From Escherichia phage UGJNEcP1: DNA of 64,000 nucleotides. Each line of letters begins with the position of its first letter. The stretch's first letter is position 1. The stretch lies in sequence record OV754623, one strand, 5' to 3'. The notes under the pieces are model-generated. The model saw only the letters and a list, made by a program, of their open reading frames with translations, did no database searches and was not told where the DNA came from. Shown here piece after piece: positions 2,296-29,595 of this stretch. The translations under genes and the position numbers were made by a program.

Positions 2296-2971
2296 ATTTC
2301 CATCCGGGCCATTTTGAAGATTTAAGTCTATATGTAACTAAAGACGCAGAAATATTAAAAACATTTGAAACTTCTTTACACGAGGCGTATTTTATACCAT
2401 CAATAGTTATAGGTTTTTGTTTTTTAATAGTCCTTTCTCTAGAATGTGGTTTTGAATTTGCTATTCTAAGAGCTTCTTTAGTGGAATCAGGCATCGCCTT
2501 ATTCGTTTTTCTCCCTTTTCGGACTTTACTCAAGGCCAATTTGTGAGCTTCAGATAGTTTCTTACCCTTATTAGGGGACGGTATTTTTCTTTCTAGTCTT
2601 GTTTTAGATACTTTAGCCTTAGTCTCTTCAGATCTAGGTTTACCTAATTTAGAAAGTGAAATGGCCCTTTTAGCTTCATCACTTTGTTTTTTGCCAGGAC
2701 CACCTTTACCACCGGGAACTAAGTTATAAGTATCATCTCGCAAAACAAAATCTTCATTAACCAATTCTGCTTCTTTTTTATAGGCGTCCTTGTCATTATC
2801 ATATTCATAAAGAATTTCGGTATAAAAATTTTTTAGTCCATATTTAGCTTTGGCCGCTAATATAGCGCGGCCTGATCCAATATACCAATCTTTCTCTTTA
2901 TGTTTTTTATGTACGCCTATATAAATTTTACCATTTATTTTATTGGTAGTTTTATACACAACGTATTTCAT
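2288..2971 (-). CDS. GIY-YIG homing endonuclease (Seg-like free-standing HEG)
   Basis: N-terminal YVVYKTTNKINGKIYIGV GIY-YIG motif; Lys/Arg-rich C-terminal DNA-binding region with NUMOD-like repeats; 8-nt overlap with 59 and 4-nt overlap with 33. Confidence 0.8.
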   Translation of the reverse strand: MKYVVYKTTNKINGKIYIGVHKKHKEKDWYIGSGRAILAAKAKYGLKNFYTEILYEYDNDKDAYKKEAELVNEDFVLRDDTYNLVPGGKGGPGKKQSDEAKRAISLSKLGKPRSEETKAKVSKTRLERKIPSPNKGKKLSEAHKLALSKVRKGRKTNKAMPDSTKEALRIANSKPHSRERTIKKQKPITIDGIKYASCKEVSNVFNISASLVTYRLKSSKWPGWKYD

Positions 2972-4581: not shown

Positions 4582-7500
4582 ATGGCCGACATCAAACGTA
4601 AGTTCAGAGCCGAAGACGGTCTGGACGCCGGTGGCGACAAGATTGTTAACGTAGCATTAGCCGACCGTACAGTAGGTACAGATGGCGTAAACGTTGACTT
4701 CCTGGTACAAGAAAACACCGTTCAAGTATATGATTCTACGCGTGGATATAACAAAGGATTTGTTGTTCTTTATGACAACCGTTTATATCAAGCAATAAAT
4801 GATATCGTGTCTCCTTCAGGGGCATTTAACCTTTTACAATGGCGTGCAGTTCGTACCGATGCACAATGGATAACTGTCGCTTCTGGGACTTATCAACTTT
4901 CTTCAGGTGAATCTATTTCGGTTAACACTGGTGCTGGCAATGATATGGTTTTCACATTGCCAAATGCGCCGGTTGATGGTGATACTGTTGTTTTGGCTGA
5001 TATTGGTGGAAGAACCGGGACAGTTAAAGTACAGATTAACGCGTCTGTGCAGAGTATTTTAAACTTTAGAGGTGAACAAGTTCGTACAGTTTTAATGACG
5101 CGCCCACGTTCACAACTATTGTTTGTGTTTAGTAATCGCTTGTGGCAGATGTATATCATTGATTATGGTAAAGAATCAATCACTGTTACACCTGCGACAC
5201 CATATCAAGCACAAGCAAATGATTTTATCGTTCGTCGTTTTACTAGTGCAGCACCAATCAACATTACACTTCCACGTAATGCTAACAATGGCGATATAAT
5301 CACCCTAGTCGATTTAGATAAATTAAACCCACTGTATCATACAATTGTTAAAACATTTGATGATACAACGTCTATTGGTGAAGTCGGGACTCATATTGCC
5401 GAAGGCAGAAATGACTCTGACGCGTTTTTTGTTTTTGATGCTTCAAATAGTTTATGGCGTATATGGGAAGGCGACCAGAAATCGCGTCTTCGTATTATCC
5501 GTGCGGATTCAAATATTCGTCCAAATGAAGAAGTTCTTATTTTTGGCACAAATAACGCTACATCCGGAACTATTAATCTTACGCTGCCTACAGGAATTTT
5601 GAGTGGTGACACTGTTAAAATTTCAATGAACTACATGCGTAAAGGCCAAACAGTAAAAATTAAAGCTGCCGAAGGTGATACAATTGCTTCTTCTGTTGCA
5701 TTGCTTCAGTTCCCTAAACGTTCTGAATATCCACCTGATGCTCAATGGGTCTCTGTTACTGAACTAGAATTCAATGGCACTACTTCGTATGTTCCTGTAT
5801 TAGAATTAGCATATATTGAAGATACCGATTCCGACACTCATTATTGGGTTGTGCAACAGAATGTCCCTACGGTAGAACGTGTTGATGCTGGAACTGATGC
5901 TACACGAGCTCGTTTAGGTGTTATTGCTCTTGCTACTCAAGCGCAAGCAAATGTTGATTTAGAGAATACTCCAGCTAAAGAAGTGGCTATTACTCCTGAA
6001 ACGTTGGCAAATCGTACAGCAACTGAAGCTCGACGTGGTATCGCTAAAATTGCTACAACAGCACAAGTTAACCAGAATTCCACAGCAACATTTGTGGACG
6101 ATACTATTGTTACGCCTAAAAAACTAAATGAGCGTACAGCAACTGAAACTCGTCGTGGTCTTGCTGAAATTGCTACTCAGGCTGAAACCGATGCTGGTCT
6201 TGACGACACAACGATTATTACACCTAAGAAATTGCAGGCACGTCAGGGTTCTGAAACACTATCTGGTATAGTTAAATATGTATCAACTACTTCTGCTACT
6301 CCTGCTGAAACTCGTGGGGCAGCAGGCACTAACGTTTATAATAAAACCGTAAATAATTTAACTATTTCCCCTAAAGCCCTTGACCAATATAAAGCAACTT
6401 ATGCTCAACAAGGTGCAGTAATTTTAGCTGTTGATAGTGAAGTAATTGCTGGACAATCTCAAGCAGGTTATTCTCACGCTGTAGTAACTCCTGAAACACT
6501 ACATAAGAAAACTTCTACTGATGGACGTATTGGTTTAATTGAAATTGCTACGCAAGCAGAAACTAATACTGGGACTGATTATACACGTGCAGTAACGCCT
6601 AAGACGTTAAATGATAGGAAAGCTACGGAAGGAATATCCGGCATAGCCGAACTTGCTACGCAAGTTGAATTTGATACTGGAACTGATGATACTCGTATCT
6701 CGACTCCACTGAAAATTAAAACTCATTTTGATTCTTCTGACCGTACCAGTGTTAATTCTGATTCCGGACTTATTGAAGAAGGAACCTTGTGGAACCATTA
6801 TACTCTTGATATTTCTAAAGCAAATGAAACACAACGTGGTACACTTCGCGTAGCGACCCAGGCAGAATCTAATGCAGGAACTTTAGATGATGTTCTTATT
6901 ACTCCTAAAAAGCTTTTAGGGACTAAGTCCACTGAAACGTCTGAAGGCGTAATTAAGGTTGCTACTCGGGCTGAAACTGTAACAGGAACTTCTGCTAATA
7001 CTGCTGTATCTCCTAAGAATTTAAAATGGATTGTCCAGAACGAACCAACATGGGCTGCTACTACGGCAATTCGCGGATTCGTTAAAACTTCATCCGGTTC
7101 TATTACATTTGTTGGTAATGATACAGTTGGTTCAACACAACCTTTAGAATCATATGAGAAAAATAGCTATGCAGTATCACCATATGAATTAAACCGTGTA
7201 CTTGCTAACTATTTACCATTAAAAGCAAAAGCTGCTGACGCAAATTTATTAGATGGCCTAGATTCATCTCAGTTCATTCGTAGGGACATTGCACAGACGG
7301 TTAATGGTTCACTAACCTTAACCCAACAAACGAATCTGAGTGGCCCTCTTGTATCATCTAGTACCGCTACGTTTGGTGGATCAGTTTCGGCAAATAGTAC
7401 ATTAACTATTTCTAATACTGGAACGGCAACTCGTCTGATTTTTGAAAAAGGACCTCAGACTGGAACTAACCCAGTACAGACGATGACTATCAGAGTTTGG

Positions 7501-26387: not shown

Positions 26388-26405
26388 AAGCTCCCGAAGG
26401 AGCTT
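26388..26405 (-). terminator. UUCG-tetraloop hairpin at the 3' end of gene 39
   Basis: minus strand AAGCUCC-UUCG-GGAGCUU overlapping the gene 39 stop. Confidence 0.4.
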
Positions 26406-28221
26406 AGGACATCCATTCTTTACGAAGTTCTGAATCATCACCCATCAACATTTCAAAGAGTTCTTTCCAATTTTCAGGAAGTTTAACTACGTCGTACACA
26501 GGGTTCTGAATCATTTCACGATATTCTGACTTTTCAAGGGAGCCTAATCCCTTGATGTATCTAATACTATGCTTAGGCAGTGTATCTTTAACTTCTTCAT
26601 ACTCAGCTACAGTATAAAACCATTTTTGAGTTTTGCCAATTTGTGCAATAATTACAGGCGTTTTAACAAAACGAATACGTCCTTGTTCAAACAATTCAGG
26701 CCAATTACTAAAGAAAGCAAGCAAAGCCGGATAGATACTTCCAAGACCGTCGTGATCTGCATCGGTCATAATTGCAATATTACGATAGTTCGTATTCTCT
26801 GCCTTTTCACCAAGAATAAGACCTGTGATAGCACAGATATCGAAGAGCTCTTTGTTCTTCATCATATCGGCATATGACATACCCCAGCTATTCATCACCT
26901 TACCACGTAATGGGAATCCACCGTGTAGTTCACGGTCACGAACATCAATGAGATAACCAATTGCCGAATCACCTTCTGTTAAAAACAATGTTGTATCTGC
27001 ATCTTTACCGCATTGGTTAGCTTTAATATGCTTATGAACCTTAGCTTTAGTTGCCTTTTTAGCTGCTTTAGTTTCTGCAGCCTTTTCTGCCGCCAATTTA
27101 CGAGCTAATGCTGCTTCAACAATAGGCATAATCAAGGCTTCGTTTTTAAGAAGTGCCTGAGCAATTTTCTTAGCATCTAATTGGATATGATTACGAATAT
27201 CACCGTACGTTGACGTTAAACGCTCTTTAGTCTGAGAATCAAAACGCATGTTGCTCATGTCTCTAATAAACATCAACATTGTGAGACATTCTTTAACACG
27301 AGCTTTAGTGACTTCAATACCCTTATATTTCTTTTTAATACCTGGCAAAAGATGTTCACAGATATCATCCATTACACATTCAACATGATGACCACCATTT
27401 TTAGTATGGATGTTATTCACATAAGTTAAATGACGGAAGCCATCTGGTGATGTTGTGAATGCTATAGAAACTTTATCATTTTCTTGAATGATGTTATCTT
27501 CACCAAATTGTTTAGCAAATCGTTTAAAATTACCATCAACCTTTTTACCATTAAATGTGAACTTGATATCAGGATAAACGACTGCCAATGTTTGAAGTCG
27601 GTCTAAAGTAATATCTAAATAAATTTGAGATAAATTGTGCTCTTCAAACGAAGAGAAATCAGGAGTGAAGATTACTTTAGTGCCTTTACCTTTAGATTTC
27701 TTAGAAGACCATGATTTGTTTTCCATTCCATTTGAACAGTTAACAGTGATTTCATTTTCGCCATCTGACGTAATGCCTGTAAACAACGTAGAGAAGATAT
27801 TAGTTAAACTACTCCCGACGCCATTCATACCACCAGTCTTGCGTTCAGAGTCATCACCAAAGTTACCACCGGCCTTTGGAATAGTCCAGGCTGCTACAGG
27901 CCCAGGAATTTGTTCACCTGTTTGGTCGGTAACTAAACCTTGAGGAATACCACGTCCGTTATCTTCCACCGAAACTTGATTATTTTTAATTTGCACATCA
28001 ATTTTATTTGCAAACTTAAATGATGTACGAATAGCTTCATCAACCGAGTTGTCAATAATCTCATCGATTAATTTAACCAGACCAGGAACATATTCAACTT
28101 GTTGATATTTACCAAACAAAAAACGCTCATGTGCTTCTTTAGCTGAAGAACCAATATACATACCACTGCGTTTCTTAATATGTTCTACATCCGACAATAC
28201 CTTAATTTCATTTTTAATCAT
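26404..28221 (-). CDS. 39: DNA topoisomerase II large subunit gp39, unsplit (GyrB-like, includes the T4 gene 60 portion)
   Basis: 605 aa single ORF with GHKL ATPase and TOPRIM regions; T4 splits this into 39 and 60. Confidence 0.9.
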   Translation of the reverse strand: MIKNEIKVLSDVEHIKKRSGMYIGSSAKEAHERFLFGKYQQVEYVPGLVKLIDEIIDNSVDEAIRTSFKFANKIDVQIKNNQVSVEDNGRGIPQGLVTDQTGEQIPGPVAAWTIPKAGGNFGDDSERKTGGMNGVGSSLTNIFSTLFTGITSDGENEITVNCSNGMENKSWSSKKSKGKGTKVIFTPDFSSFEEHNLSQIYLDITLDRLQTLAVVYPDIKFTFNGKKVDGNFKRFAKQFGEDNIIQENDKVSIAFTTSPDGFRHLTYVNNIHTKNGGHHVECVMDDICEHLLPGIKKKYKGIEVTKARVKECLTMLMFIRDMSNMRFDSQTKERLTSTYGDIRNHIQLDAKKIAQALLKNEALIMPIVEAALARKLAAEKAAETKAAKKATKAKVHKHIKANQCGKDADTTLFLTEGDSAIGYLIDVRDRELHGGFPLRGKVMNSWGMSYADMMKNKELFDICAITGLILGEKAENTNYRNIAIMTDADHDGLGSIYPALLAFFSNWPELFEQGRIRFVKTPVIIAQIGKTQKWFYTVAEYEEVKDTLPKHSIRYIKGLGSLEKSEYREMIQNPVYDVVKLPENWKELFEMLMGDDSELRKEWMS

Positions 28222-28271
28222 GTTGTCTCCTCGTTATGAAGGTATTCTATCATCCGAAATCTAAAGCAAAA

Positions 28272-28285
28272 AGGGCCGAAGCCCT
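28272..28285 (-). terminator. UUCG-tetraloop hairpin terminator
   Basis: minus strand AGGGC-UUCG-GCCCU followed by UUUUUGCUUUAG. Confidence 0.5.
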
Positions 28286-28728
28286 TATTTAAATTTAATT
28301 TTCTGAAGTGCATCAATTGCAGCTAAACGCCCTTGTTCACTTTTAACTGTAATGACCACATCGCCTGATACGATCACCGAACCATCAACAAATTCTATAG
28401 AGCCTTTTTTGAAATCGACAGCTGTATCTGGTTCCGGAACTTCTTCAAAGAATTTAAATTCTGCACCATAAATCAGAATATCACCTTGCATACTAATGAT
28501 TGTACGTCTAGGTCCATCGGTTTCAGCGGCAATCATTGAAACACCATAACCAATCATCTCTTCTACAATAAAATCTCTTGATAATAAAACTGTATGCAGA
28601 GTAGTGTTAAGACGTTTACCAGTTGTATTAAGAATTCTCAAGAAATTATCTTCTTGACCTTTGATAATACGATATTTCTTACCAACTTCAAAACCTTTAA
28701 AACCTTTAAAAGCCGTATTAAAAGCCAT
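28285..28728 (-). CDS. hypothetical protein (goF/39.x region)
   Basis: 147-aa ORF; no motif recognised. Confidence 0.45.
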   Translation of the reverse strand: MAFNTAFKGFKGFEVGKKYRIIKGQEDNFLRILNTTGKRLNTTLHTVLLSRDFIVEEMIGYGVSMIAAETDGPRRTIISMQGDILIYGAEFKFFEEVPEPDTAVDFKKGSIEFVDGSVIVSGDVVITVKSEQGRLAAIDALQKIKFK

Positions 28729-28730
28729 AA

Positions 28731-28910
28731 TTAACCCTTCTTAAGTAAGTCGTAAAAACCACCGTTCACATGTTTAGGAGCAGAAACCCGACGAGTAGAC
28801 AGACGATGACATTCAGGGCAAACATCGTTTTCTCGTTCAGAAATCCTTTTAATTTTTTCATATTCATGACCACAATCTTCAGATTGACATTTATAGTCGT
28901 ATAACGGCAT
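28731..28910 (-). CDS. FmdB-family zinc-ribbon protein
   Basis: 59-aa [24 protein letters not shown]...CPECH matching the FmdB zinc-ribbon pattern; TAATG overlap with upstream ORF; below track cutoff. Confidence 0.5.
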   Translation of the reverse strand: MPLYDYKCQSEDCGHEYEKIKRISERENDVCPECHRLSTRRVSAPKHVNGGFYDLLKKG

Positions 28911-29341
28911 TATTGTTCCTTAAAATGTGCTTTCAACATTTGATACAAAGACCATGCCTGGTCGTTATTTTCGATAGTAATCGTCATCACAGGAAATTCA
29001 GACAATTCGTCAAGTTCATCAGAATCTTGCTCTTCAGACGCTTGATATGGATTTCCAACTTCGTCAAAGAACTCTGCTTCATTCGTGGAGAGCCAGATAA
29101 AGTTTTCATCAAGGATATCACCGCCTGTTGCGTATCCAACCGTGCCAGTAGATGTTAAAATTTTAGTAGGACGTCCGAGATGGTCAACATCTAATACTTT
29201 AAATGGTTCCATGCCAAGACGTCGTGCATAAATCCCATTATCAGTGTGGTCTTTAATAAACTCTTCTTGGGCACGTTTATCTATAAATTGATACCATGAG
29301 TTAACGCGGAATTTATTAGCCATTAGTAAGTTTCCTTCCAA
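28910..29341 (-). CDS. hypothetical acidic protein
   Basis: 143-aa ORF with acidic C-terminal stretch. Confidence 0.45.
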
Positions 29342-29595
29342 TAAGTTGTACCATTTTCAGTGATTTCACGGAAGATACCATAGATAGGCATTTCATCGCC
29401 GAGTTTTTCGTAAACGTAAACCACTTCGGTGTAGCATAAAAATTCAGTCCAGTTTTTCTGTACAACAACTAAATCAGGATTAAACAGAACATCTTCAAAC
29501 TCATCGATGTTTGAATCGGTAGTTACGTTTTTAATGATTTGACGTTTCATAATATTCTCCTCTTGTTTTGATAGGTCTATAGTATCATAGACCAT
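29323..29595 (-). CDS. hypothetical small protein
   Basis: 90-aa ORF, possibly starting at internal MKRQ. Confidence 0.4.

Follow-up and report, generated by a model that had tools for sequence, protein, structure and literature searches.

T4 gp31 and RB49 CocO are phage-encoded GroES-like co-chaperonins, and gp31 replaces GroES as the lid. A further T4 product, gp39.2 (NwgI), is a protein of 58 aa that was described as a subtle modulator of host GroES/GroEL (Ang and Georgopoulos 2012, via PMC5153855 and PMC4396842). Genetic and biochemical data suggest that gp39.2 shifts GroEL toward an 'open' conformation, to which GroES-type co-chaperones of host and phage alike can bind (PMC5153855). On certain groEL mutant hosts, deletion of 39.2 from T4 led to a complete block that the wild type did not show (PMC5153855). 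The summary of the GroEL result in PMC4396842 agrees with this account, and the functional statements on gp39.2 made below rest on these two secondary sources (PMC5153855, PMC4396842). The theme common to gp39.2 and gp31/CocO is that T4-like phages adapt host GroEL for the folding of their own proteins; however, gp31 and CocO are unrelated to gp39.2 in sequence and fold, and gp39.2 is reported to bias the conformational equilibrium of GroEL (PMC5153855). A search of the literature on gp39.2 returned nothing that adds mechanism or structure after 2012, and neither a structure of a GroEL-gp39.2 complex nor a direct binding site was found by a PDB sequence search or by the literature search. The T4 39.2 transcript has been classed as early, and the T4 protein was undetected by mass spectrometry in the same work (Class_P = NA; PMC9697503 Table S2).

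Genomic setting of the ORF

The window analyzed here is the whole 64,000-nt stretch of the Escherichia phage UGJNEcP1 record OV754623, which belongs to a T4-like Mosigvirus of the RB69 type. The ORF list and the window sequence place an ORF of 59 aa, closed by a TAA stop, on the minus strand (Table 1). The 1.7 kb around this ORF shared 99.3% identity with Escherichia phage UGJNEcP2 and 96-98% identity with many Mosigvirus genomes, such as JK36, JS09 and ATK47. The neighborhood lies on one strand in the order dexA ... motB ... cef, goF, the 59-aa ORF, a 147-aa ORF and gene 39, which is the classic T-even early block. A promoter scan returned 21 candidates against 19.5 expected in shuffled sequence, and no promoter was assigned.

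Table 1 Features of the 39.2 locus in the UGJNEcP1 window
Feature	Coordinates	Strand	Description and basis
Gene 39.2 (NwgI) ortholog, CDS (near certain)	28731..28910	-	59 aa + TAA; RB69 ORF006 59/59; Zn_ribbon_8 E = 5e-13; dN/dS 0.01-0.11
Predicted zinc-ribbon core, residues 1-42	28785..28910	-	Ligands C8 + C13 (CX4C) and C31 + C34 (CXXC); Pfam match, AlphaFold2, alignment
C-terminal tail, residues 43-59	28734..28784	-	Conserved motif A44-P45-x4-G50-G51-F-Y-D54
Shine-Dalgarno AAGGA	28917..28921	-	6 nt 5' of the ATG, within the last goF codons; sequence reading
TAATG stop/start junction, goF/39.2	28908..28912	-	Sequence reading
goF ortholog, upstream gene	28910..29323	-	137 aa, ATG at 29323; position relative to JK36_00007 'mRNA metabolism modulator' and RB69 goF; phrog_622 and goF PHROGs
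cef ortholog	29323..29550	-	Pfam T4_Cef E = 5.5e-34; JK36 annotation; TAATG junction with goF
147-aa ORF, downstream	28285..28728	-	Starts 2 nt past the 39.2 stop; positional counterpart of RB69 ORF005 and JK36_00005
Terminator-like hairpin AAGGGCTTCGGCCCTT + T-run	28265..28286	-	Consensus scan and sequence; ends the cef-goF-39.2-ORF block before gene 39
Gene 39, DNA topoisomerase II large subunit, unsplit 39+60 form	26404..28221	-	605 aa; ORF list; JK36, RB69 and ECD7 annotations; synteny anchor

The ORF is a conserved protein-coding gene

The original prediction had noted that the ORF falls below the 60-aa cutoff of the ORF track supplied with the sequence. This was confirmed, and the unlisted status reflects that cutoff only; the counterparts JK36_00006 and RB69p006, among others, are annotated publicly. 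The length of the ORF is not significant by itself, because many ORFs of 30-100 aa arise on the non-coding strand of the window, which has a GC content of 37%. That a chance ORF was read here, with no gene behind it, could be argued from the short length and from the many chance ORFs of comparable length that the AT-rich window carries on its opposite strand, as well as from the one study that did not detect the T4 39.2 protein by mass spectrometry (PMC9697503). We give this reading next to no credence, as the ORF gave a strong Pfam match (described below), is preceded by a good Shine-Dalgarno sequence, and has a T4 ortholog with a published deletion phenotype (PMC5153855). In addition, tblastn matched the 59-aa protein in 955 phage records, with at least 80% coverage in 912 of them and at least 99% identity in 134.

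The pattern of substitution was assessed in seven colinear orthologs. Of the 54 variable columns, 11 fell at the first codon position, 7 at the second and 36 at the third, and pairwise dN/dS ranged from 0.01 to 0.11. The ORF is under strong purifying selection, and a chance ORF is excluded by the conservation pattern. The Pfam match, the conservation across 955 records and the substitution pattern therefore establish a real protein-coding gene. Two alternative-frame ORFs, 28766..28873 on the minus strand and 28770..28904 on the plus strand, were rejected as chance ORFs; the substitution pattern fits the 59-aa frame. Candidate tryptic peptides of the 59-aa protein are CQSEDCGHEYEK, ENDVCPECHR and HVNGGFYDLLK.

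Orthology to T-even gene 39.2

The window protein was identical to RB69 ORF006 (5972..6151) at 59/59 residues, and the two DNA sequences differed at two synonymous sites. Compared with the intact 58-aa ORF of T4 GT7, identity was 82.5% over residues 1-57. In T4, goF is followed immediately by 39.2, and the order cef-goF-39.2 is present in T4, RB69, JK36, T2 and VR26. In Bp7, cef lies directly upstream of 39.2, and the 39.2 ortholog is kept upstream of gene 39 in Krischvirus, Pseudotevenvirus and Moonvirus. The records of Bp7, VR26 and ECD7 explicitly annotate the ortholog as similar to T4 gp39.2. Because of the identity to the RB69 and T4 proteins, the gene order and these annotations, the ORF can be assigned with near certainty as orthologous to T-even 39.2 (NwgI). 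The window protein has the features of the gp39.2/NwgI orthologous group, namely sequence orthology, position, a length of about 58 aa, four ligands and an AP..V.GGFYD tail. It shares with RB69 ORF006 and T4 gp39.2 the length class of 58-59 aa, the strand, the site between goF and gene 39 and the early region. The differences are not substantial: goF is one codon longer in the window, and the gene that lies between 39.2 and 39 differs from T4 39.1. Ang and Georgopoulos reportedly first picked up the gene as RB69 39.2, and the T4, RB43 and RB49 homologs are said to have behaved similarly. RB69 39.2 is presumably the exact protein encoded in the window. The gene is thus already known: it has been named, is annotated in hundreds of genomes, and its function has been studied since 2012.

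The goF/39.2 junction

Read along the minus strand, the goF/39.2 junction is AAG GAA CAA TAA TG CCG, in which the final A of the goF TAA (28912..28910) is also the A of the 39.2 ATG (28910..28908). A one-base stop/start overlap with the upstream gene had been predicted with no strand given, and it was found as described on the minus strand. The AAGGA is likewise present in RB69, T4 and T2. In these three phages goF ends one codon earlier, leaving the order TAA, 2-nt gap, ATG; the additional codon that goF has in the window, relative to RB69 and T4, replaces this 2-nt gap by the TAATG overlap. The gap between goF and 39.2 is 7 nt in VR26, and in other genera a different gene lies upstream, namely dexA in ECD7 and, in Muldoon, a MazG-like gene. 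The conserved features are close packing and the AAGGA; the TAATG overlap is not one of them.

The same arrangement was found at other places in the window. A TAATG joins cef to goF as well, 400 nt upstream. The window has 58 minus-strand ORFs that are 100 aa or longer; the next ORF started at a 1-nt overlap in 4 of them, at a 4-nt overlap in 7 and after a gap of 0-10 nt in 9, so that 20/58 are followed by a start within -4 to +10 nt. The TAATG junction is therefore routine gene packing in this genome. The overlap proposed in the original prediction is real, and coupling or re-initiation between goF and 39.2 is plausible; the emphasis placed on translational coupling was overstated, because 39.2 has its own Shine-Dalgarno sequence, the overlap is peculiar to the longer goF (RB69 and T4 have the 2-nt gap), and close spacing is routine. 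Translation of 39.2 probably starts from its own Shine-Dalgarno sequence, with re-initiation from goF as a possible addition.

The N-terminal region matches the FmdB zinc ribbon

Residues 1-42 of the window protein matched Pfam PF09723 (Zn_ribbon_8) with E = 5e-13 and 49.3 bits, compared to a gathering score of 34.4, and the NCBIfam model TIGR02605 (CxxC_CxxC_SSSS, FmdB family zinc ribbon protein) was matched with 48 bits, compared to a cutoff of 31.3. By these curated thresholds the protein is classed as a member of the FmdB/Zn_ribbon_8 family, as had been proposed from the sequence pattern. Orthologs were then compared from thirteen phages, which covered Mosigvirus, Tequatrovirus, Dhakavirus, Gaprivervirus, Krischvirus, Pseudotevenvirus, Moonvirus, Muldoonvirus and Nanhuvirus and included one Ackermannviridae and one Vequintavirinae phage. 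All orthologs in this set began with MP.Y.Y.C and kept the four metal-ligand positions. The spacing varied: the first pair of the window protein has the non-canonical CX4C, and CxxC, CxC, CxxH and CX4-5C were seen elsewhere, with His in place of the second Cys in the Krischvirus and Muldoon lineages. Loss of the four Cys in relatives, named in the original prediction as part of what would count against it, was thus not observed; the ligand positions are kept, with Cys or His as the second ligand.

In an alignment of 20 sequences of the phage-type subfamily, C8, C34 and P45 were invariant, and P2, Y4, Y6, R26, C31, A44, G50, G51 and D54 were at least 90% conserved. Both the ligands and the tail are kept across eight virus genera or families. 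The AlphaFold2 model generated from this alignment contained four short strands (residues 3-8, 16-20, 28-30 and 37-40) with a pLDDT of about 82, which is consistent with the predicted zinc ribbon. A Foldseek comparison of the model with the PDB gave no match at E <= 0.001, the best being generic small zinc modules at E = 0.39, and a PDB sequence search returned only insignificant matches to bL31 zinc knuckles (E >= 0.32).

Many GenBank and RefSeq records, and the family phrog_1076, carry the label 'FmdB-like transcriptional regulator', by which the protein would act on DNA or RNA polymerase in the early phase of infection. The gene sits among early genes that include motB-type transcription modifiers, and the fold matches, weak and non-significant as they were, included the RNA-polymerase-binding protein RbpA (E = 0.39-1). 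However, the label is inherited from the family name and has no DNA-binding evidence behind it. Pfam found the zinc ribbon only and no DNA-binding domain, with Ogr_Delta and others far below their cutoffs, and no fold match reached the E <= 0.001 level. Moreover, the literature search gave no usable experimentally defined function for FmdB zinc ribbons, and GroEL modulation is the only function that has been assigned to an ortholog by experiment (PMC5153855, PMC4396842). A role as a transcriptional regulator is accordingly regarded as very improbable.

Homologs of gp39.2 were also observed beyond the Straboviridae, in Klebsiella phage KZag1 (Ackermannviridae, 2501..2746) and Enterobacter phage F5M1E (Vequintavirinae, 2501..2677). 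Both have the same N-terminal ribbon and a related tail, and both lie in unrelated gene neighborhoods. This distribution suggests that the small 39.2 gene has spread horizontally among large virulent enterobacterial phages.

The C-terminal tail is shared with bacterial FmdB proteins

Beyond the Pfam match, which ends at residue 42, the motif A44-P45-x4-G-G-F-Y-D was as conserved as the ligands in the 20-sequence alignment. From residue 41 on, the AlphaFold2 model had a pLDDT of 53-58, and the tail is probably flexible. The wider family was surveyed for this motif. A word-indexed homolog search returned only 8 close relatives, and the wider family emerged when 1.84 billion cluster representatives were scanned exhaustively with HMMER, which gave 252 clusters at E <= 0.001. 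The tail survey covered 156 sequences, made up of the 150 listed clusters of these 252 and of earlier matches. By the motif pattern, 23/156 sequences carried the tail, most of them 55-68 aa long with the phage-type tail and a few of them looser matches. Most of the remaining sequences were of the bacterial FmdB type with 'AP...(F/L)KG(S/G)GWY.TDY', often followed by low-complexity sequence. In several bacterial matches, such as P0080, P0100 and P0107, the phmmer alignment reached query residue 54-55 and placed GGFYD opposite GGWYE, and therefore the tail looks like an ancestral feature of the whole FmdB family.

The mostly bacterial FmdB family thus shares with the window protein the MP.Y.Y.C start, the two ligand pairs and a G-G-aromatic-Y tail after 'AP'. 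The two differ in the first ligand pair, which is CXXC in the family and CX4C in the window protein, and in the region past the motif, as bacterial members commonly have a long low-complexity extension rich in Ser, Gly and Ala, whereas the window tail is short (GGFYDLLKKG) and has no such extension. They also differ in that a function has been assigned experimentally in the phage gp39.2 subfamily, whereas none was found in the literature searched for the bacterial family, whose members are described at most as 'putative regulatory'. The search for experimental functions of FmdB zinc ribbons, bacterial members included, returned nothing usable, and its results were swamped by unrelated acronyms.

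The correspondence between the conserved AP..V.GGFYD tail and the bacterial FmdB KGxGWY tail, read from alignments, appears to be new here, if only mildly so. Because the phage tail aligns with 'AP...KGxGWY.TDY', bacterial FmdB proteins may modulate a chaperonin as well. In its full form this conjecture holds that AP..V.GGFYD contacts GroEL, that the bacterial FmdB proteins are also chaperonin modulators and not transcription regulators, and that gp39.2 is a captured and minimized host factor; we consider it decidedly improbable as a whole. The tail motif common to phage gp39.2 and bacterial FmdB offers an inexpensive starting point for testing what this large orphan bacterial family does.

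Proposed function in GroEL modulation

Very likely, the ORF encodes a 39.2 (NwgI) ortholog that is an early zinc-ribbon protein of 58-59 aa with a flexible tail and that acts on GroEL rather than on DNA. In the proposed mechanism, a four-ligand N-terminal FmdB/Zn_ribbon_8 ribbon and a short, conserved, flexible tail would together form gp39.2. By transfer from the T4 ortholog, the protein would act on the host GroEL chaperonin and not on DNA, and it would move GroEL toward an open state able to bind GroES or the phage co-chaperonin. The phage would thereby be helped to fold GroEL-dependent proteins in hosts with unfavorable groEL/groES alleles. That 39.2 works as a GroEL modulator that widens the range of usable host chaperonin alleles seems likely, because the genetics and biochemistry of the T4 ortholog have been published and the RB69 sequence is identical to that of the window. 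More speculatively, the zinc ribbon might serve as a scaffold and the AP..V.GGFYD tail as the contact element. The original prediction had suggested, from the small zinc ribbon in a phage early region, a regulator or inhibitor of host proteins; that guess agrees with the published GroEL modulation of the ortholog, although T-even gene 39.2 had gone unrecognized.

The protein could also be a zinc-ribbon adaptor whose primary host target is another protein, with the GroEL phenotypes being indirect or one of several effects. The reach of the family would fit such a reading, since members occur in Ackermannviridae and Vequintavirinae phages as well as in a bacterial family that is very large and has a related tail. 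Such breadth points to a partner that is general and conserved. In addition, the GroEL effect was termed 'subtle' and comes from genetics and biochemistry with no structure reported (PMC5153855). The deletion phenotype, however, is specific to particular groEL mutant hosts (PMC5153855), and no other partner was reported in the literature searched. We regard a different primary target as unlikely and favor action on GroEL.

Annotation of 39.2 in related genomes

The identification of the ORF has corrective value for public records in two respects. First, the labels 'FmdB-like transcriptional regulator' and, in T2, 'kilA anti-repressor' conflict with the sole experimental function that has been reported. 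The T2 ortholog (AP018813 1501..1677) is annotated in full as 'kilA anti-repressor protein', an evident mis-annotation from another record. Second, a single-base difference truncates the T4 RefSeq model of 39.2 to 45 aa, and this short form is the one given in the T4 omics table.

In T4 RefSeq NC_000866 the 39.2 CDS is only 45 aa long (region 5640..5845 compared with GT7 KJ477686 601..777). One extra T (GCTTCC compared with GC-TCC) shifts the frame, and six substitutions lie within the same stretch of about 200 nt. T4 GT7 has an intact 58-aa 39.2 ORF, which is the published size, and this ORF was left unannotated. The truncated model is carried by UniProt Q01434 as well as by the T4 omics table, in which 39.2 is listed at 5702..5839, that is, as the 45-aa form (PMC9697503 Table S2).

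Shortened versions of 47 aa were observed in Shigella phage vB_SsoM_113 and Salmonella phage Manna (P0007 and P0008), in which the frame shifts just past the third Cys. These versions end in the hydrophobic sequence ...VCLLVGLLLLSM, and the fourth Cys, the last zinc ligand, is lost. The alternative frame that they enter corresponds to 28766..28873 on the minus strand of the window. They are either sequencing errors or natural knock-outs.

Other features of the locus

The 147-aa ORF stands between 39.2 and gene 39, where T4 has 39.1. It matched phrog_622, which is the PHROG of goF (E = 3e-19); a direct BLASTP comparison of goF and the 147-aa ORF for paralogy was insignificant (E = 0.089), although both match phrog_622. 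The hairpin AAGGGCTTCGGCCCTT begins within the stop codon of the 147-aa ORF, is GC-rich and is followed by a T-run, so that it resembles an intrinsic terminator, and several related records annotate a terminator at this stretch. Gene 39 is fused (39+60) as in RB69 and T2 and, unlike in T4, has no mobA/60 insertion or translational bypass element. A second, near-perfect hairpin, GGTCTATGATACTATAGACC, was observed at 29574..29593 on the minus strand, just 5' of the cef Shine-Dalgarno sequence in the short gap after a motB.2-like gene, and could represent a structured RNA element or a processing site.
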